Shown here in pieces: positions 4,701 to 64,000 of a stretch of DNA of 64,000 nucleotides. The stretch is taken from contig OX597814.1 in the NCBI GenBank assembly GCA_951406725.2, forward strand, positions 34,968,001 through 35,032,000. Direction: 5' to 3'. This DNA comes from Octopus vulgaris (Eukaryota). The notes below the pieces were generated by a model. The model searched no databases. It was not told the origin of the DNA and worked only from the letters and a program-made list of their open reading frames with translations. Positions within the stretch are counted from its first letter, which is position 1. Each line of letters starts with the position of its first letter. Position numbers and translations under genes: made by a program.

Positions 4701-5344
4701 GTGTCCTAAATCACTACTGTCAGTCGGGACATTATAGTACACTTTAACTGAATGTGGACAGCCAGGTATTCACTTGTAAAACTAAGTTTTAAAGCATAAT
4801 CAATTACGTCAATTAGTTTTAAATCTAAATATCACTATTTAGGACATTATATTTGCTCATCAGCTGATAAATATTTTAGCGTACAAAGCATTACCTCAGT
4901 TGTGACTCAAAATGCTTTTGAGAAAGCTAATTTTAATCACTGCATTGTGGTATCATTTAACGGAAAAGTTAACAACCAGCTTTTACGCTTGCCTGTTATC
5001 ATAAATATATCTATTAGAAGTGAAACCGGTATGGAATAATGTATTTTGGCATGATTTGATTAATACAAAATGAAATGTGCATGCTTTTTTTGTATTATTT
5101 TCTCCCTATGTATATATACATACATCCATGCATATATATATATGTATATATATATATCTATATCTATGTATATATATAAACATACACACACAAACACACA
5201 CACACATATATATATATGTCCCTTTGTCTGCCCTTGTTTGTCCTCTCTATGTTTAGCCCCCTGTGGGCAATAAAGTAATAAATATATATGTCATCAGTGT
5301 ATCGTATATCCGAAAGAGAGCACACTAAAAAAATAGAGCAGTAA

Positions 5345-6653
5345 TGTATTTATTTACAAACAGTTAAATACATGTCCGGTCATAGAGTAACCAATGGTCT
5401 TGCATCGATAAAGCGATAGGCCTTATAGACGGCTCATCACACTCAATGGCAGATGCAAAACCCTCTTCAAATTGGACGTAGAAAACTGTTATGGTCAATT
5501 AATATGTAAACAAAGGCTTGATGCTTTGGCCGAGTAATCTTCCTTAGACCAGTTTAGATGGCAAACTTTATGGACTTAAGTGACGAAAGGGGTAAAAGAG
5601 GAATCTTTACTCCTAGGCTGTTTCTAGTCTGTGGATACTATTTCGGCTTTAATCAGCGAGTGGAGAATTGGTGAATGAGGACTCCCATGCCTGTAGCAGG
5701 TAGTACTTTAAATGGAGGCTTGGGCTATAAAAGTCACTTACGGCCTGTAATTTAGTATTCTTTCTTGCTCTGCTATGCAGAGCTTGCATCACCGTTCCTG
5801 TTAATGTAGGGCTCCGGCTGCTCTATAATCCTCCATTTAGCTTTGTGTGGGATTCCATTATCCTTAAGCTGCCATACATGGCTTGTCATGGAATTGACGT
5901 ACTGTCTTTCCGTAATCTTGAAAGAGCACATGTGGTTGTACAGGCGCCGCTTAAAGGCAGTTACGGCCAACCCAATATATCTCCGAACCTGATAGCTGGC
6001 TGTGTTCACACTCCTGGTGAAACTTCCGTTGACCCTGGGCTTGGGGTTGATGTTGCTGCCGCTGCTGTTACTGGAAAAGTCAACGGTGCTGTTATTACGG
6101 GGCGTAGGTTTGGCGATATCGCTGTAGTTGTTTTCGCTGTAGCTATCCCTGACCGTTGGTGTTGCTGTTGCTGTTGCTGCCACTGTTACAGATGTTGTGG
6201 ATGCTGTCGCTATTAACATTGGGCGTGGGAAAGGTATCTTCGCTAGTGCTGTTGCTAACATTTATAGCCCATGCCTCCATTTCAAGCGCTACAGGTACGG
6301 GATTCCTCACTAGCCGATTCTCCACTCACCTATTAGAGCCGAAATGTCATCGCAGACTGGAAACAGCCTGGGAGACAGAGAGTCTACTTTCACCCCTTTC
6401 GGCACTTAAGTCCATAAAATTTTACATCTAAACTGGTTTAAGGGAGATAACTCGCAAAAGACTCAAACAGTGTTAGCCTTTGCTTACATATTTACTGACC
6501 GTAACAATTTTCTACGTCCTGTTTGAAGAGGGGTATGCATCCGCCATTGGGTCTGACAAGTCATTTATAAGGCCTAACGCTTTATGGATGCGAAACCATT
6601 GATCACCCTATGACTGGACATATATACTGCTTGTATATAAATAAATAAAATAA

Positions 6654-20401: not shown

Positions 20402-20574
20402 TACATACGTATGAGTTTGCGTTTGTATATGTATCTAATTTAGAAACGGAAAAGTTGAAATGCCTTAGGCATTTGAAAGTCAAGTCTGTTGTGAACCAGC
20501 TATATAGTAACCACAACAAAGCGAAAACAAAAGACTGACTGCTTAGATTAAGAAAAATTAACATAAAAAGTTAA

Positions 20575-21030
20575 TATTGATTAAAAATTTTGGCACAGGG
20601 CCAGGAAGTTCGGAGGAGAGGTTAAGTCGATTACATCGACTCCAGTGCTTAACTGGTACCTATTTTATCGACCACAAAAGGAAAAGACGGCTACGGAGGC
20701 ATTTGATCTCGAAGCGTAAAGACGGAAGAAATGCCGCTAAGCATTTTACCTGGTGTGGCAACGATTTTGCCAGCTCACTGCCTTACTCTAGTAATTAATA
20801 TTAGTTACTTATATGGTGGTGAGCTGGCAGAATAATTACCAATCTAAGCAAAATGCTTAGCGGCATTTCATTCGTTTTTACGCTTTGAGTTCAAATTCCG
20901 CTGAGTTCGACTTTCCCTTTCATCCTTTCGGAGTCGATAAAATAAGTACCAGTTGAATACTGGAGTCGAGGTAATCGACTAACCTACTCCCTCGAAGTTG
21001 CTGGCCTGTGCCTACATTTGAAACTAATAT
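20575..21030. mobile_element. Two Nin-domain SINEs, head-to-head
   Basis: Minus copy ~20575-20783 and plus copy ~20815-21030 (gagctggcagaa..tttcatcctttcggagtcgataaaataagtaccag). Confidence 0.85.
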
Positions 21031-21047
21031 TAATTACTAGAGTCTGG

Positions 21048-21138: not shown

Positions 21139-21355
21139 CTTGGCAGAAACGTTAGAAAGCCGGGCGAAATGCTTTGCGGTATTTCGTCTCCGCTACGTTC
21201 TGAGTTCAAATTCCGCCGAGGTCGACTTTGGCTTTCATCCTTTCGGGGTCGATAAATTAAGTACCAGTTACTCACTGGAGTCGATGTAATTGACTTAATA
21301 CCTTTGTCTGTCTTTGTTTGTCCCCTCTGTTTAGCCCCTTGTGGGTAGTAAAGAA

Positions 21356-33158: not shown

Positions 33159-33210
<52 letters not shown>

Positions 33211-33222
<12 letters not shown>

Positions 33223-33822
33223 GAGGGCATTATTATACTAATTTTAGTAAAATTTTTGGTAGAAATGACTAATTGTCCCTCTTAGCGTGTGGCATGTATG
33301 TATAATAATGCCCTCTATATATAAATTAATATGTTCAATAAGAAAGAATTATTTTCGAAATTTTTTCTCTTATGAGGTCTTTCACGCTATCTACCCGATA
33401 ATTTCTTGTTAAGTTTTCCTTATTAAGAAGTTGTCCTTAATTGCTATATATATATATATATATATATTTAACAATTAAGAATAACTTCTTAATAAGGAAT
33501 CTTAACAAGAAATTATCAGGTAGTTAGCGTGAAAAACCTCATAAGAGAAAAAAATTCGAAAATAATTTTTTTCCTTTTGAAAATATTAATTTATATTGTA
33601 TAGAGGGAATTATTACACATAAATGCCTCACACTAAGAGGGACATAAGTCATTACTACCAACATTTCACTAATCGTACCCAATGCAGTTAATTTCACTAA
33701 TCGTACCCAATGCAGTTTTGAAAACTGCATTGGGTACGATTAGTGAAATTTTGGTAGTAATGACTTATGTCCCTCTTAGTGTGAGGCATTTATGTGTAAT
33801 AATGCCCTCTATACAATATAAA
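33211..33822. repeat. Nested inverted-repeat (fold-back) structure
   Basis: ~33245-33445 is inverted at ~33470-33672 around (TA)n; ~33588-33718 is inverted at 33722-33822. Confidence 0.9.
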
Positions 33823-34736
33823 TCTCTCTCTATATATATATATACATATATATATGAAGAGAGAGTGAAGAGAGAGAAAGCGATAGGGACAGAGAGAGAG
33901 AGGAAGAAAGAGAGCAAAGGAGAGAAAGAGAGGGAAGAAAGAGAGTGAAGGAGAGAGAGAGTGAGAAAGTGAGGAAGATAAAGAGTGAAAGACATATTTA
34001 TACATACATTCTTGCATCCATGTATTCAAAGAACGCAGTCCTGAAATGGCTGTTTTGGACAGGAAATTAAAGTCACGTTCAGTTGCATAGGTCAGTTTCT
34101 AAGCGGATGTTCATATTTCATTGAAAATTAGTGAGAAAAGAACATTTATGGTCAACTACATAAGAAACCTATGTGTTCTTTACTCAGGTTATGAATTTAC
34201 ATCTGTAACTAAATCATTGGTCCACTGATTTATGCTACAATGTTTTAAGTAATAAGTCTAAAAGAGCTGGAAGTTTTAGACAAAGAGCCTATTTAAATCA
34301 AACTATAAATTAAATCTACAAACTAAACGGTGAGAATAAGCACAATGTTTCCAAATTCAGTATGCTACGCTTTACTATTATTGTTATCCAAAGTCCGATT
34401 ATGGAGCTCTGTTTATGAGTTAGAGACTAGCCTTTCCCTATTTGAAGATTTAACTAAGCTGCGGAGTTACAGTGAAAATATGTTAACCACATACGTACGC
34501 ATATATTTTAGTATACGTATTTCGTTAGTGTTTATATACTTGTACACAAACATACACACACAAATGCGCGCATACACGCACACACACACACACACACACA
34601 TACACACGTGCGCGCATGTATATGCTTAAATAGATTTCTTTCTATACAATCAATGAGTATTCCATTTTTTCATCTATTGAACTACTTTAAGCTAATCATC
34701 AGATAGACTCAGCTTAATATTTCTTCTATTTTGATC

Positions 34737-36099: not shown

Positions 36100-37130
36100 A
36101 TACAAATGGCGACGCTTCCACCAAATTCTTGTAGACCTAAATTCAAAACATCAGCTCTGATTTCTTCAAATTCCTTAATGATTTCATACACTATGATTTG
36201 AGTTGCTTTTTGCATTTTAAGAATTTATGTGCTTCCAGGATGTTATTCATTTTCGAGTCTCTAGTTAGTAAAGGAAGATTTTGCACAATAGTGTTGTATG
36301 CCTCGTTGTTTCTAGGGTTGTGAGTTGATATATACAGTAGTGCTTTGACATGAGGAGTGGTGTTATGTTTTGTTGCCCTTGGCACGCTTAATTCCATCGT
36401 CTATAAGTGAGGGTGGATATTGTCTTTCAGCTAATGTTGTTCTGAGGTTTAGAAAACAAAAGTTCCGAGTAGTTCTGTCAGACACTACTGTGCAAACCCT
36501 TTTACCAAATTAAAAGGAATATTTATTTTGATGTCTTTCGGGTGCCATGAGCTAAAAAGGAAATATTGCTCTGAGTCCGTTGGTTTATCATAGTTGTCAG
36601 TTATAATTCGGTTGTTGACCTTTTTAATCATAATATACCAAAATGGGACCTGTTGTTTGCTATATTCCATTGTGAATTGAATGTTACTGTTTATATCATT
36701 TAGTGTTGATTTGAATACCAAACGTTTACCAATGATCTCCTTCCAAATGTTAAAACAGTCATCCTGGTATCTTTTCCAGTTTTCTCTTATATAACGGTGG
36801 AATGGATAACCGTATTTTTGCAATGACACTTCATATATGATGAATTCAAATAACCCATTATCACGTTCGCAAGACCAGGGGTTGCTTTCGTTCCCATCGC
36901 AATTCGACATTTTTGACGATAATAGGTGTCATCAAAGAAGAAGTAATTGATCTGAAGTACAAATTTTAAACATTCAATAATAAAGAACTGATTTATGCGT
37001 TCCGGAAGTAATTCGGGATACTTTTCCGACCAGAATTTGATTGCTTTTATTCCATAGTCATGTGGGATGTTGGTGTAAAAATTGATAACATCGAACAACG
37101 CTAACTGAAAGACATTATCCACCCTCACTT
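36100..37130 (-). pseudogene. Decayed PLE RT fragment
   Basis: FDVINFYTNIPH, RQKCRIAMGT, WKRYQDDCF, KPTDSEQY..SSWHP; frameshifted. Confidence 0.9.
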
Positions 37131-37989
37131 ATAGACGAACTACGCACACACACATGTATGTATATATATCTGTGTGTGTATATATAAAGACTGAGAGCGA
37201 GAGAGAGATATGTATGTGTACGCGTATGTGTGTACATGTGTGTCTGTGTGGGAAGATGCGCTTATATATGTGTGACAATGTGTATGTAATCTTGTATACA
37301 TGTTCAAACGTATTCGTACGTGTAGCGACTCCATATTAAGATTTATCACTTCCTGGAAAATCTTAAACATTTTGCGGTAGCAATGCAGACGGGAGTATCG
37401 GCTTTATGTGTCCTGGTCCATATTTTACAATTATGAAAATGGAAAGGTGAAACTAATGTTCATCTCTGTGAAAGTCAGCTTGAAACAACACTCCTGTATA
37501 TGTTTTACTTCTCTGTAAAAATAATGTTTGTAGATATGATCATAATCGTGTATTACCGGTTTATATAGCAAGTTTAGTAAACGTCACCTAATCGACCTAG
37601 AAATGCGTGGTATTTTAATTTAATTGGCCCTAGCGTGGTTCGAAATCAGGAGTTAGGGCGTAGCAAGGTATTTGTAGGCTATTATACGAAATCTGTCACT
37701 GAAATGCCCGCTAGTAATAGTATTTTTATATGATAGTAATACTTTTCAGTAATACTTTTCAGTTGTTTCTATGGGGAGTATTAGTCTATTCAAATTTGCT
37801 ACATAATACGAAAGAATATTGTAGCATGAAGTACTCATGTCTACTTTAAAGCATGCAAAATCAGTGAATCACGTGACAGACAACTTACTCGAATATTTAG
37901 TTAATCCATATTCCATCAAATCCTTTTGCACCTCGTGTCAGGTACGTGTAGATAGCTATTTAATGGTTTTATATAATCGTTCTCTTAAC

Positions 37990-40955: not shown

Positions 40956-41433
40956 GCTGTCTGTCTATCTATCTAGCTATCTATCTATCTACATATGCAT
41001 ACATACATACATACGTATATGCACATACCCACAACCATATATACTTATATAGATGTGCATGTATGAATATATACACACTTACATACATGTACATACATAT
41101 ACGTGTGTGTGAATGTGTGCGCGTGTGAACGTGTGTGTGCCCCGTTTAAGTGCTAATGCATTCAATAAAAGTGTTAAAAATGAAAATTAAAAAAATTCTG
41201 TGAATAGACCCTAATTTCCCAATTTGTATTTTTCGTTTTTAAACACAACGAAAAATTTATTTCATTAAAAAATAACACGTATACTTGCATAGAAAACACT
41301 ACCAATTTATTGAAAAAAATATTTATAAATACACACAACACAATACAGACACATACATGCACAAATATACATGTACGTAGGCATTCACATGCACATATAT
41401 ACGCATGTAAATGCATATATGCATATATATACC

Positions 41434-41627
41434 TACATATTCATACATGTGTATGTAAACAGATGCATGTAAATGCATATATACATATGCATACCTACCT
41501 ACATACAAACATATACGTATATATATATATATATATATATATACGTATACGTTTGTATGTAGGTAGGTATGCATATGTATATATGCATTTACATGCATCT
41601 GTTTACATACACATGTATGAACATGTA
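41434..41627. repeat. Near-perfect palindrome centred on (TA)n, abutting the PLE 5' end
   Basis: ~85-bp arms (tacatattcatacatgtgtatgtaaacagatgc... / ...gcatctgtttacatacacatgtatgaacatgta) with 2 visible mismatches. Confidence 0.95.
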
Positions 41628-42258
41628 CACCAACTAATACATACTAATACGTACTAATACATACTAGTACATACTAATACTTACACCAACCCTATACATA
41701 CACACGTCCAGACCCCGCATACGCACTTATACTCTCTCTCACACACACACACACACCTATACATACCAATACGTACTAATACATACTAATACATACTAAT
41801 ACATACACCAACCCCATACATACGCACGTCCAGACCAATCTTACGCACTAATACTCTCTCATACACACACACACACACACACACCCTTATACATACTAAT
41901 ACATACACCAACCCTATACATACACACATCCAGACCCCTCCCACGCACTTTTAGCTGGTCCCTCAACCCATTTATCAACCCTATTATCTCCCCTTATTTC
42001 GCTCTCGCGTCTCATGTTTGATCTTTGACCTCTGGCCGAAATCAGATCGCCATGTTGATTCGTTAGCTACTGCACGCATTTTTTTTCTCTCCTTCTTTCT
42101 GTGTTTTTCTCTCTCTGTGTATCTTTCTGTTGAAGAGCGTAGGCTCGAAACGTTAAAGACTTGTTTTATTTATATTTCCTGAGCGCCATACAATTGTTCG
42201 TTTGTTTTCCACCTGCCTTCGTCTTTTGTTTATTTTCATAAAGCTTCCCGTTATATAT
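41627..42258 (+). repeat. 5' pseudo-LTR of the PLE
   Basis: Direct repeat of 46204-46837; differences seen are microsatellite length and a 7-bp indel (gccatacaattg vs gccatactaatacaattg). Confidence 0.95.
42122..42159 (+). ncRNA. Minimal hammerhead-ribozyme-like motif (variant core) in 5' pLTR
   Basis: tcttt CTGTTGA a gagc-gtag-gctc GAA acgtt aaaga: helix I tcttt/aaaga, helix II gagc/gctc, palindromic helix III; A6 replaced by U. Confidence 0.65.
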
Positions 42259-42921
42259 TATGCGCTCACGTGGTCTCACTTTCATCCTATATTCTACCAA
42301 TACCACTATCAACACTTACCTCTACCTTGGATTTTCTTTACCTCTTGGATACTTACCATTGGCTGCACCTCTCTTTCGCGGATCAAAGTGACTTTGCATT
42401 GATGTGAAATCCTTAAAAAATATACCACGACGTCTACACATTTCTCACCTTGAACTTTCAACCTTGAACTTGTTCGCATAAACTGTCCCGTTTGTTGTAT
42501 TTTTATTTCTTCTTATATTACCACATTTTTACATTCATTTCATGCTTCCCACATTTTCCTGAATTTTTGTTCTCCTTTCCGTCTTTCTTCCCTCTCTGGA
42601 TGTCCATACTCCGTTTCCTCTGCCTGCACCCCCTTTTTTTGCCTCCCCCTCTCTCTGCTTCCCTTCTTTCTTTCCCTTTTTCGTTTGCCCCGTCTTTTCT
42701 GCCCCTATCGCTTACTTATCTAGTTTTTTCATACGATTATTATTTTTTTATTATTTTTTTGTTTTTTTATTATTTTTTTTATTATTTTTTTGTTTTTTTG
42801 AACGTTTGTTTTTTCCCCGTTTTTCGCTATCCTTTTTTTCTATTTTTTTCATACGATAATTTTTGTTTTTTGTTTTTTTTTGTTTTTTCGAACGTTTTTT
42901 TTTTTTTTCCGCTATCCCATC

Positions 42922-45900
42922 ATGCCGGATCCTAGGTCCTACCTTCTCACCCTCCATCACCGTTTGAAGGATCATCTACGTTCGCTTCCTGTATATTGCC
43001 TTCAGCCGTCCGTTAATCTCTCTCTACTTCTTTTTAAAAAAACCCGCTTCTCTAGCCATGTCTCTTTCCTAAGCCGCTGCCTACATCACCGACTCATCCC
43101 TAAAGGTTTCCGCCTCCACTTCCACCCTGCTCTCCACTCGGATTCTTCCATCTTACCCATACTCCGCACCACATCTTACCGCCTTATGCGGGCCACCATT
43201 CGCTCCAATCTCTCCAAACTACATGCCATCAACCGCCTTCTTCCTCCTGCTTTCTCCACCATCTTCTCCTCTCTGCCGCCTCTCTATGCTCCAAACACGC
43301 TACGCTTCATTATCCATTTGAATCAACTCTTCCATCAATTTCTTTCTGATACCAAACTTCGTAAACTCCAATCACTCTTCCATTCCACCCTACCCGACGC
43401 CACTACCCCAACTCCTCCACCACCCTTCTCCCCTCCCGATAGGCTCCATCCACCCACACCTAACCCCACTGCCCCTCCCTACAACCCCTTCTCCCCTCCC
43501 GTTAGGCTCCATCCACCTACACCTAACCCTACTGCCCCGCCTAACCACCCCCCACACACCTCTCCAATCCCTCCCCCTCAGACCTCCCCGAGACCTACCA
43601 CCCCTCCTACTTCTATTCCATCCACCCCTTCTCCACTTCCGTCTGTTGTTACCATTCCCCCCGATCTTCCCCTCTCTGCGGCTGAACGCTCCGTCCTTGG
43701 TAGGGGTCTGCGTTTCATCCCCCTCACTCCATCCTGTAAGGAATTCCAGACGCGAGTTGATGTCCACAGCTTTGTGCGCCGTGTCCGGTTGGGTGCGCAT
43801 TACCACGACTCGCCACCCACACCCAACGAAGAGGACGACTGCTTCACTGGCCTGGGCCGCCGACCATCCCCGTGGACGCCTGCCCCTGGCCAGATCCTAG
43901 CAGTGGATCTTTTCGCGGGCGCTTGTCAGCGTGCATTGGAGCGGTTCAACTTCTCCAGGCGCCAACGCCGCCTCAACATCTCCCCGGCTGAGCTCTTGGC
44001 TCTTCGTTCCCTCCAACGGCGCGCTGACATTATCATCAAACCGGCTGACAAGGGTGGAGCTGTAGTGGTGTGGCGCGCGGACCTCTATAGGGCCGAGGCT
44101 TTCCGCCAACTCAATGACACCTCCTTCTATTCCCCTCTGCCCTCTAACCCCACACGTAGCTACCAACAGACGGTATCCTCTACTGTCCAAGACCTCATCT
44201 CGTCCTCCCGTCTCTCCCGCACCGCATCCAACCTAATTGTGCGAACCCCACGTACCCCCACCATTTACTTCCTCCCCAAAATCCACAAACCCAACAACCC
44301 TGGCCGCCCCATCGTCTCCGCCTGTAACTGCCCCACGGAGCTCATCTCTAAATACCTCGACCGTGTCCTTGCCCCCCTAGTGGCATCTCTTCCCTCCCAC
44401 ATCCACGATACCAACCATGCTCTCCGGCTTTTCAACTCTTTCTCCTTTCCTCCCGGCTCCTCCAAAATCCTTTTTACTATGGACATCCAAAGCCTCTATA
44501 CTGTTATCCCTCACCACGAAGGACTGCAGGCCCTTCGACACTTTCTTGACCTCCGCTCTAACCCTGTACCTGACACCTCCACACTCATTCGTCTGGCCGA
44601 ACTTGTCCTTACTCTGAACTGCTTCTCGTTCGCGGGCGAGTTCTACCATCAGGTCTCGGGAGTGGCCATGGGAACGCGAATGGGCCCCAACTATGCGAAC
44701 CTGTTCGTTGGCTATGTTGAGGCCCAAATATTCTCTAATTTCACTGGTCCCACTCCTGAACTATATGGTCGTTATATTGACGACATTATCGGTGCCACCT
44801 CACTCTCCCGCGAACATCTAGATTCCTTCCTCTCTTTCGTCCAATCTTTCCATCCAGCCCTCCACTTCACTTCCACTATCTCCAACACCTCTGTCTCCTT
44901 CCTCGATATTTCGGTTAGCATTCTTCACTCTACTCTTACCACCTCCATTCACTACAAACACACAGACTCACACTCATACCTCAACTTCTCTTCCTCCCAC
45001 CCAGAACACACCAAGCTTTCCATCCCCTATTCCCAATTCCTCCGTCTACGTAGGCTCTGTAGTGACGACCATGACTTTGAGACTCAGTCTCAACGTATGG
45101 CTCACCACTTCACCCTACGTGGATACCCCCTCACCACTATCCACACCGCCCTTGCCAGAGCACGGTCCGTGGACCGTGTATCTGCTCTCTCTCCCCGAAC
45201 CCGCCCTGTAGTCTCCCGCCTCCCTTTTCCCCTCACTTACCACCCCACGACCCTACGTCTCCAACGCACCATTCTTCGAGCTTTCCGTCATCTCCAGTCC
45301 GACCCGTCCACTTCACACCTCTTCCCTAACCGACCCCTCCCCTCTTTCAAACGAGCCCACAACCTTCGAGACCTTTTGGTCCATAGCTCCTTCCCTGACC
45401 CTACCTCCCAACCCGGCTCGTTCCCCTGCTCCCGCCCACGTTGCCGCACTTGCCCTTACCTCTCCAACACCACCCGCCTCACTAGCACGCACCATCGACC
45501 CTATCCCATCATCCACTCCTTCACCTGCACCTCCAGCAATATTATCTATTGCATCTCTTGCTCTCTCTGCAATTCCTTGTACATCGGACAAACGGGACGC
45601 CGCTTGGCTGACCGGTTCGCGGAACACCTTCGTGACATCCACCTTGCGAACGACACACCGGTCTCACGCCATTTCCGCTCCACCGGTCACTCCTTGCAAC
45701 ACCTATCTGTGTTCGGTTTGTCCTTACACAGAGGCCATCCGGATTCCCGTTTGCGTCGTGAACAGGAATTAATCTTCTCTCTTCGCTCTTATACGCCATT
45801 TGGTCTCAACTCTCCCCCCTCCTCATCTAACCCCCTCTCCCCCTCCTCACCTATCCTTTCTCCCCCGACCCCTACTTCTTCAGTCCTTCATCCTTTCACC

Positions 45901-46161
45901 CCTACTCCCCTTCCCTTCTTCCCTCTTTCTCCCTCCCTCTTCCCCTTCCCTCTGCTCCCTCACTCCCTCTCTCCCCTTCTCTCTCCCCCTCTCCCTCTTT
46001 CCTCCTTCATCCCCCTCATCCCCTTCCTTCTCCCCATCCTCTCCTCTCCCCCTTCTCCTCCCCCTCTTCTTCCCCTCCCCTTCTCTCCCCCTCTTCTCCC
46101 CCTCCCCTCTTCTCCCCCTCCCCACTCTTCTCCCCCCTCTTCTCCTCACTACACCACATGA
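42922..46161 (+). CDS. PLE polyprotein: reverse transcriptase, Cys-rich linker and GIY-YIG endonuclease (1079 aa from first ATG)
   Basis: Uninterrupted frame; IIKPADKG, LPKIHK..PGRPIVS, MDIQSLYT, GVAMGTRMGPNYANL, RYIDD, SFLDI; linker CSRPRCRTC; IIYCISC..YIGQT.R.LADRFAEH; EQELI..FGLN. Confidence 0.95.
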   Translation: MPDPRSYLLTLHHRLKDHLRSLPVYCLQPSVNLSLLLFKKTRFSSHVSFLSRCLHHRLIPKGFRLHFHPALHSDSSILPILRTTSYRLMRATIRSNLSKLHAINRLLPPAFSTIFSSLPPLYAPNTLRFIIHLNQLFHQFLSDTKLRKLQSLFHSTLPDATTPTPPPPFSPPDRLHPPTPNPTAPPYNPFSPPVRLHPPTPNPTAPPNHPPHTSPIPPPQTSPRPTTPPTSIPSTPSPLPSVVTIPPDLPLSAAERSVLGRGLRFIPLTPSCKEFQTRVDVHSFVRRVRLGAHYHDSPPTPNEEDDCFTGLGRRPSPWTPAPGQILAVDLFAGACQRALERFNFSRRQRRLNISPAELLALRSLQRRADIIIKPADKGGAVVVWRADLYRAEAFRQLNDTSFYSPLPSNPTRSYQQTVSSTVQDLISSSRLSRTASNLIVRTPRTPTIYFLPKIHKPNNPGRPIVSACNCPTELISKYLDRVLAPLVASLPSHIHDTNHALRLFNSFSFPPGSSKILFTMDIQSLYTVIPHHEGLQALRHFLDLRSNPVPDTSTLIRLAELVLTLNCFSFAGEFYHQVSGVAMGTRMGPNYANLFVGYVEAQIFSNFTGPTPELYGRYIDDIIGATSLSREHLDSFLSFVQSFHPALHFTSTISNTSVSFLDISVSILHSTLTTSIHYKHTDSHSYLNFSSSHPEHTKLSIPYSQFLRLRRLCSDDHDFETQSQRMAHHFTLRGYPLTTIHTALARARSVDRVSALSPRTRPVVSRLPFPLTYHPTTLRLQRTILRAFRHLQSDPSTSHLFPNRPLPSFKRAHNLRDLLVHSSFPDPTSQPGSFPCSRPRCRTCPYLSNTTRLTSTHHRPYPIIHSFTCTSSNIIYCISCSLCNSLYIGQTGRRLADRFAEHLRDIHLANDTPVSRHFRSTGHSLQHLSVFGLSLHRGHPDSRLRREQELIFSLRSYTPFGLNSPPSSSNPLSPSSPILSPPTPTSSVLHPFTPTPLPFFPLSPSLFPFPLLPHSLSPLLSPPLPLSSFIPLIPFLLPILSSPPSPPPLLPLPFSPPLLPLPSSPPPHSSPPSSPHYTT

Positions 46162-46203: not shown

Positions 46204-46829
46204 ACACCAACTAATACATACTAATACGTACTAATACATACTAGTACATACTAATACTTACACCAACCCTATACATACACACGTCCAGACCCCGCATACG
46301 CACTTATACTCTCTCACACACACACACACACCTATACATACCAATACGTACTAATACATACTAATACATACTAATACATACACCAACCCCATACATACGC
46401 ACGTCCAGACCAATCTTACGCACTAATACTCTCTCATACACACACACACACACACACACCCTTATACATACTAATACATACACCAACCCTATACATACAC
46501 ACATCCAGACCCCTCCCACGCACTTTTAGCTGGTCCCTCAACCCATTTATCAACCCTATTATCTCCCCTTATTTCGCTCTCGCGTCTCATGTTTGATCTT
46601 TGACCTCTGGCCGAAATCAGATCGCCATGTTGATTCGTTAGCTACTGCACGCATTTTTTTTCTCTCCTTCTTTCTGTGTTTTTCTCTCTGTGTATCTTTC
46701 TGTTGAAGAGCGTAGGCTCGAAACGTTAAAGACTTGTTTTATTTATATTTCCTGAGCGCCATACTAATACAATTGTTCGTTTGTTTTCCACCTGCCTTCG
46801 TCTTTTGTTTATTTTCATAAAGCTTCCCG

Positions 46830-46837
<8 letters not shown>
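46204..46837 (+). repeat. 3' pseudo-LTR of the PLE
   Basis: Direct repeat of 41627-42258; contains atactaatac decamer repeats and three copies of a ~100-125-bp unit. Confidence 0.95.
46695..46732 (+). ncRNA. Minimal hammerhead-ribozyme-like motif in 3' pLTR
   Basis: Identical to 42122-42159. Confidence 0.65.
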
Positions 46838-46875
<38 letters not shown>

Positions 46876-47029
46876 TCGCACACATGCATGCACACACATA
46901 CACACATATACAAACACAGAGTTTATTGAAACTAAATTTTTGAATCACAACTCGGGTTTCTACGCCACTGCGATCTCATAAATGATTCATAATGAATAAC
47001 AGTGGTGTTTAAGATACTTCAAGGTGGTT

Positions 47030-63291: not shown

Positions 63292-64000
63292 AACAGGCTG
63301 CCGACTGGTTGACTAGTTTGCAGAGCAACTCAGAGACATCCAACTTGGCAACGGGTTGCCACCCTCTCAACATCTTCGCTCCACTGATCATCCTATCCAT
63401 ACCTCCTAAATTCTTTAAACTTTTTCTCCCATCACATTCAATCAATATACACTATGCCCTTTGCCTCTATCTCGCATTTTTCACGCCTCTCCAATGCATC
63501 CCATTCACACTAACATTTTCCTCGCATGACCCTCATATCAACCCGCATTTCCTCAACACACTAACACGGTTTTCAAATAAACACACCTCATAACTCACCC
63601 CTCTGCCACACCTGCACAACTTCTAATCTTTTCTACCATCTCGTCTCCTTGGCAGACCCGCATACACAAGCAGATTCACACACACGTACACATATCGACA
63701 TATTCACATATGCACACCCTCAAATATCCATTCTCCTCACGTATACATACACGCGCGGGCCCACACATCACAATTCACTCACCATTTTGTTTCCCAATTA
63801 TTTTTGTTTTCGTTTTTTCCACCCGTACAAACACTCACATGTTTTCTCACTCATTTATAGTATTGTTTCTTAACCCGCCATTCCCACTTTGTATGAAAAC
63901 TCGCCTACACACTTTCCTTACCACCAACTCTTTAGCTCCCCATCATATATAGGCACACCCACAAGCACATACATACTCACACGCACGCACCTACACTTTC
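63292..64000 (+). pseudogene. Older 5'-truncated relative of the main PLE (GIY-YIG end plus C-rich tail)
   Basis: TGCRLVD*FAEQLRDIQLGNGLPPSQHLRSTDH aligns with TGRRLADRFAEHLRDIHLANDTPVSRHFRSTGH. Confidence 0.8.

Follow-up and report, generated by a model that had tools for sequence, protein, structure and literature searches.

At the 5′ end of a Penelope-like element (PLE) located within the window, i.e. the whole 64,000-nt stretch of Octopus vulgaris DNA that was analysed, the upstream sequence enters a TA microsatellite, returns in inverted orientation and stops where the element begins. This arrangement raises the questions of whether the inverted segment was derived from the host or from the element, and of how it was formed. 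As described below, three routes coupled to insertion could have produced it and, taking the three together, it is quite probable that the segment is a scar of 5′-junction repair at insertion.

The element and the palindrome at its 5′ junction

The palindrome at 41434-41627 was centred at 41530|41531 and consisted of two arms of 97 nt each (41434-41530 and 41531-41627), with a spacer of 0 and 2 mismatches at the pairs 41511/41550 and 41439/41622; both differences were T>C on the + strand, at 41550 and 41622. The centre was formed by a self-complementary (TA)13 (41518-41543), delimited by tract listing and folding, which provided the arms with homology for self-annealing and is the presumed fold-back point. 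To its left lay the CATA/TA-rich host flank at 41434-41517 (+ strand), the putative template, and to its right the inverted copy of that flank at 41544-41627 (- strand), both delimited by arm alignment and the former also by contigs of the sets X15 and X2 (see below). The earlier note had claimed about 85 bp of host flank inverted around (TA)n, with the copy ending exactly at the start of the 5′ pseudo-LTR (pLTR), and both claims were confirmed: without the (TA)13, the arms were 84 nt long and 82/84 identical, and the end of the inverted arm at 41627 was the first base common to the 3′ pLTR (46204), giving an overlap of 1 nt.

Folding of the palindrome as single-stranded DNA gave -96 kcal/mol (z -22.6), equalled by 0/200 shuffles. 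In an anchored, ungapped test it scored 74, versus 18 for the runner-up among 25 TA tracts, and in the anchored, ungapped null with cross-paired flanks, a score of at least 40 was reached in 0/600 cases (maximum 35); a gapped, unanchored null reached 148 at the top versus 158 for the palindrome, this looser test discriminating poorly. Three other readings of the hairpin or of its two mismatches were rejected or not adopted. Its matches to Rfam microRNA families were all below the gathering scores and reflect an AT-rich hairpin shape; A-to-I editing of an RNA template, suggested by both changes being A>G in the sense of the left arm, would rest on two sites, which are too few and whose direction of change is not fixed; and a templated slip as the origin of both changes was discarded, each making a 7-nt local repeat, as do 7/34 possible T>C changes.

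The element, which is intact and lies on the + strand, began with the 5′ pLTR (41627-42258), a 5′-truncated partial tandem copy whose first base is shared with the inverted arm, followed by an untranslated leader with T-rich tracts (42259-42921), an uninterrupted ORF of 1079 aa (42922-46161) and the 3′ pLTR (46204-46837), which marks the 3′ end of the element. A partial tandem arrangement forming pseudo-LTRs was thus present (41627-42258 versus 46204-46837), and the two copies differed by 0 substitutions in 628 aligned positions and by 3 indels (2, 2 and 6 nt). The 6-nt piece (42187-42188 versus 46761-46766) was missing from the 5′ pLTR and present in both the 3′ pLTR and the loose-end consensus of the family. 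The 5′ pLTR also contained a motif at 42127-42150 (+ strand), repeated at 46700-46723 in the 3′ pLTR, which may represent a hammerhead-like core; stem II was seen, whereas folding z-scores were near 0 and the hammerhead family was absent from 43 Rfam matches. The segment around it, 42114-42162, was common to other repeat families, and many contigs matched only there and left with common loose ends.

The protein predicted for the single ORF possessed a reverse transcriptase (RT) domain (RVT_1, E 1.4e-7; DKG at residue 376 and YIDD at residue 618), a linker of the CX2-5CxxC type (CX4CxxC at residue 836) upstream of a C-terminal GIY-YIG domain, and a low-complexity Pro/Ser tail. The Pfam match of the GIY-YIG domain (E 4.9e-4) had 20.8 bits, under the curated cut-off of 22.6; by eye, a CxxC could be read between IIY and YIG, with histidines downstream, and a PDB search with the endonuclease region returned nothing relevant. 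Judged from its sequence, the element is a C-terminal-endonuclease PLE by the definitions of PMC8557442. It may be called Neptune-like, a label based on the linker motif, which is common to Neptune and Nematis (PMC8557442); (TA)n targeting has been reported for clades carrying a CX2-5CxxC linker (PMC8557442).

At its 3′ end, the element ran into (TA)20 (46831-46870), as had been proposed, with the reservation that the first 7 nt of the tract are possibly element-encoded, since the same bases end the 5′ pLTR (to 42258). Behind the tract lay an A/C-rich host flank (46871-46954, + strand) resembling the upstream flank. The absence of a conventional target-site duplication, claimed in the earlier note, could not be upheld; a duplication inside (TA)n would leave no visible trace.

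Host origin of the inverted arm

Parts of the stretch were contained in 19/24 public runs. Comparison was made over 41141-42400, leaving out the palindrome core (41467-41594), with the contig sets X1, X15 and X2 and with the raw run X20, which gave 7 reads only. In all three contig sets the element family was highly abundant. The sequence of the loose ends behind 42258 was (AT)n in at least 46, at least 112 and at least 84 records of X1, X15 and X2, respectively (514 further rows); thus (TA)n is the usual 3′ junction of the family. Loose ends before 41633 read (AC)n in at least 13 records of X15 and at least 11 records of X2, and this (AC)n, not the arm, is the upstream context of the element itself, as at the 3′ copy in the window.

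PLEs typically have inverted 5′ copies and tails (PMC8557442, PMC3846280), and the inverted arm might accordingly be part of the element, either an inverted pLTR or a tail, or else a flank brought along from a donor. However, no match to the arm was observed anywhere within the element, the family has (AC)n ahead of the pLTR start, and depth in the bin 41561-41602 was 0, 0 and 6.8 (positions mostly skipped) versus 1e5 to 1e6 over most of the pLTR. An element-derived arm is thereby largely refuted and has hardly any probability left. The arm matched host sequence at 41434-41517, which bears out the earlier assumption that it is foreign to the element consensus, and in being host sequence it departs from the canonical inverted pLTR of PLEs.

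The left arm belongs to the host flank, because a contig of X15 (418 nt, depth 65.5) and a contig of X2 (417 nt, depth 55.1) cover 41145-41464 and run from unique flank into the arm without a break. Compared with the window, these contigs had 7 substitutions and 11 gap letters in 320 nt (about 2% diverged), and the X15 and X2 alleles are therefore diverged haplotypes or a sister taxon; 2 of the 7 differences were not placeable, so they supply no ancestral base for 41439. Judging from the record coordinates, the contigs appear to extend about 65 letters further, to about the TA tract, and to pass, unbranched, the position at which a second arm would make the assembly graph fork. This supports, indirectly and short of proof, an empty allele without the inverted arm, although graph simplification could have dropped a branch in these assemblies. 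X1, which had no depth at 41225-41308, and X20 provide no evidence on the empty allele, and an X1 joint 41197-41605, with a shorter side of 21 letters, was not used in the argument.

Hairpins formed by (TA)n are prone to fold-back reads, and a read that was chimeric or folded back at the TA tract might have entered the contig during sequencing or assembly, the more so as no record over the join of arm and pLTR was found among the 24 pieces listed (48476 further). Yet a fold-back read would continue backwards and not switch, 97 nt later, to precisely the first base of the pLTR, and the remaining element was clean, with the 1079-aa frame open and no substitutions between the pLTRs. The chance of such an artefact appears slim.

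Formation of the palindrome during or before insertion

We are inclined to favor, with moderate confidence, fold-back synthesis at the cut upstream host end during insertion as the source of the inverted copy, and top-strand fold-back is the most economical route. Double-strand cleavage within (TA)n by the GIY-YIG endonuclease would leave a downstream end that primes cDNA synthesis, with the cDNA stopping 632 nt into the tandem upstream copy. At the upstream end, the bottom strand would be resected or displaced by about 100 nt, and the 3′ end of the top strand, consisting of (TA)n, could self-pair at a point some 13 nt inside the tract and, with its own strand as template, be lengthened by 84 nt, either by a host polymerase or by the element RT. 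The new strand would then be displaced and end-joined to the cDNA via 1 nt of microhomology, followed by filling of the gaps. Since (TA)n pairs with itself, such priming would require no chance microhomology, and the final join hardly any homology; the palindrome would be an accident of junction repair, without a function of its own. In favor of this route, the arm is the reverse complement of the adjacent flank and halts at the first pLTR base, and the steps match the mechanism drawn for L1 insertion (PMC11702581, Fig. S9C) and that of break repair in yeast, whose final join has 0-5 bp (PMC11724301). What stood of the fold-back proposed in the earlier note was the host-copied arm, the (TA)n-targeting family and the 1-nt join, whereas at least two other routes would yield an identical product.

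One of these routes, also coupled to insertion, is a template switch of the cDNA end onto nearby target DNA, comparable to the snap-back of R2. The 3′ end of the cDNA would pair with the upstream bottom strand near 41434, proceed towards the cut, copying 84 nt and some of the TA tract, and finally anneal through the self-complementary TA to the top-strand end, so that the same product as in fold-back would be made from the opposite strand. There is a precedent in the snap-back 5′ junctions of R2, which include reverse-complemented nearby rDNA (PMC11371274, PMC11331408), although in R2 snap-back, unlike the present case, the primer is considered to be the 3′ end of the cDNA, with the cDNA also serving as template in most instances, and the rDNA target is fixed. 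The substitution at 41622, 5 nt from the junction, recreates a 7-nt repeat located 10 nt away, like a slip near the priming end; however, local repeats of this length result from 7/34 possible T>C arm changes, which makes this weak evidence, and the host homology for priming is only 1 nt. A template switch is regarded as unlikely.

The other route involves a hairpin cap opened off-centre. The upstream end would be sealed covalently in (TA)n, e.g. by cruciform cleavage or ligation, the bottom strand nicked 97 nt from the tip, and the unfolded overhang joined to the cDNA and filled, resembling a long P-nucleotide addition. The zero spacer and full symmetry are consistent with a cap, and formation and opening of a hairpin at the reciprocal end have been invoked for L1 (PMC11702581, Fig. 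S9A). Nevertheless, this route would require one more ligation and nicking at a distance from the tip and, as the arm would consist of original DNA, later changes or a haplotype mosaic must then account for the two substitutions. Such a course of events seems very unlikely.

The main alternative in kind is a palindrome older than the element: a break in a TA tract would have been repaired by fold-back without any element, leaving the order arm-(TA)-inverted arm-(TA)-flank, and the element would have landed later at the left edge of the second TA tract. An observation that speaks against fold-back at insertion belongs here, namely substitutions at 2/84 positions in the arms versus 0/628 in the pLTRs (Fisher p 0.014). 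This contrast fits an older palindrome, and equally copying errors or a haplotype mosaic; pLTR identity is no strict clock for PLEs, and the 2/84 of the arms compared with the divergence of 7/310 from the X15/X2 alleles gave a p of 1.0. An older palindrome would also agree with the presence of a second TA-centred palindrome, unrelated to the element and about 8 kb off (33244-33672, 87%), and with long inverted flanks at 2/25 TA tracts of the window. On the other hand, an insertion exactly at the arm end, leaving no TA 5′ of the element, would be required, the left arm was unbranched in the X15 and X2 contigs, and the complex at 33.2-33.8 kb seems to resemble several copies of one repeat and not copied unique flank. 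On balance, an origin before insertion is judged distinctly unlikely.

Comparison with known systems and related loci

The mechanism is not new, for the same anatomy and mechanism have been published for L1, R2 and yeast breaks, and all that this single junction adds is one more class of retroelement with a known by-product of repair. In L1, three insertions have been described in which genomic DNA is inverted at the non-primed end (PMC11702581), and an inverted duplication formed by resection, fold-back, extension, displacement and ligation to the reverse-transcribed end has been drawn there (Fig. S9C). The present junction is like that of L1 in that a short inverted copy of the flank, situated at the non-primed end, is joined to the end made by reverse transcription; the host sequence that was copied lies directly upstream of the cut and the join involves low homology. 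L1 differs in using an APE endonuclease at a T/A motif and in having been observed de novo in cultured cells (PMC11702581), whereas here a genomic GIY-YIG element is concerned and the fold centre is a TA microsatellite without a spacer. In yeast, double-strand breaks give local foldback insertions captured with 0-5 bp of microhomology (PMC11724301), which share with the present arm a templated inverted copy beside the break (10 to over 150 bp in yeast) and end-joining, but involve no retroelement and are primed by a spaced, imperfect 10-bp inverted repeat with a 41-nt loop (PMC11724301).

Inverted 5′ copies and junction palindromes of PLEs have been described as element-derived and explained by self-priming (PMC3846280, PMC8557442). 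PLEs with an inverted pLTR resemble the present case in the palindrome at the 5′ junction, microsatellite targeting and the partial tandem pLTR, and differ in that their inverted segment is element whereas here it is host (PMC3846280, PMC8557442). A PLE protein, once purified, was able in vitro both to cut AT-rich DNA and to extend the two strands (PMC11167929). Passages of PMC9977147, PMC13282606, PMC12602865 and 10.64898/2026.07.22.740005 contained nothing on a junction with a host arm, and a literature search that went without most subscription papers, including older Penelope work, showed no PLE junction described as having an inverted arm of host origin.

An explanation of how the PLE 5′ junction is resolved has been called for explicitly (PMC8557442, PMC11167929). 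The host origin of the inverted arm is suggestive of an upstream host end that, as in L1, is free at insertion and can be extended; if frequent, such arms would separate top-strand priming from cDNA self-priming and would name a source of unstable AT-rich palindromes. The broader claim in the earlier note, that PLE insertion generates host palindromes, would rest on this one junction with its 84-nt host-derived arm. It is doubtful, though conceivable, that fold-back of the host end is a regular outcome and not a rare accident in TA-targeting Penelope elements. The element RT, extending both cut strands, would then start from the self-paired (TA)n end and copy host DNA, in the same step that otherwise builds an inverted pLTR. 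Were this the case, these elements would seed spacerless TA-centred host palindromes across microsatellite-rich genomes, and their junctions would be a readable record of second-strand priming in PLE insertion.

Relatives of the element were surveyed in 80 metagenome loci (28-67% identity, 295,003 nt), which are diverged and mostly short fragments. TA-centred palindromes were found in 0/80 of these distant relatives, a count that, given such diverged short fragments, is uninformative on the question of host arms. Palindromes scoring at least 20 numbered 4 in the 80 loci. Two near-perfect ones were located upstream of related PLE fragments, one in L017 (2878-3115) with 117-nt arms, a 4-nt spacer and nested inner hairpins, and the other in L067 (20-417) with 197-nt arms and a 4-nt spacer; neither had a TA centre, and adjacency to a pLTR was not seen.

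Several other inverted structures were observed in the window. The palindrome at 33244-33672, mentioned above, had arms of about 200 nt around (TA)11. Within the same complex, a 98% palindrome with 101-nt arms (33589-33689 and 33723-33823) surrounded a tandem 28-mer, and a 33-nt inverted copy (33206-33238) lay beside another TA tract. The whole complex, 33206-33823, looks like nested copies of one repeat and is reminiscent of truncated insertions of the PLE type lying tail to tail, with an inverted 5′ copy derived from the element itself in each. At 5344-6646, inverted repeats of about 390 nt (78%) flanked a reading frame (5773-6261, - strand) that by eye appeared to be a PLE endonuclease remnant, with no Pfam match, while in 36397-37138 inverted repeats of 46 nt enclosed degraded pieces of a PLE RT, with about 30% identity to the ORF. 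Another small relic was present at 63293-63391. An abundant repeat, presumably of a SINE-like family, occurred as inverted copies (75%) arranged head to head at 20571-21033 and 21141-21298, and the host DNA was dense in microsatellites.
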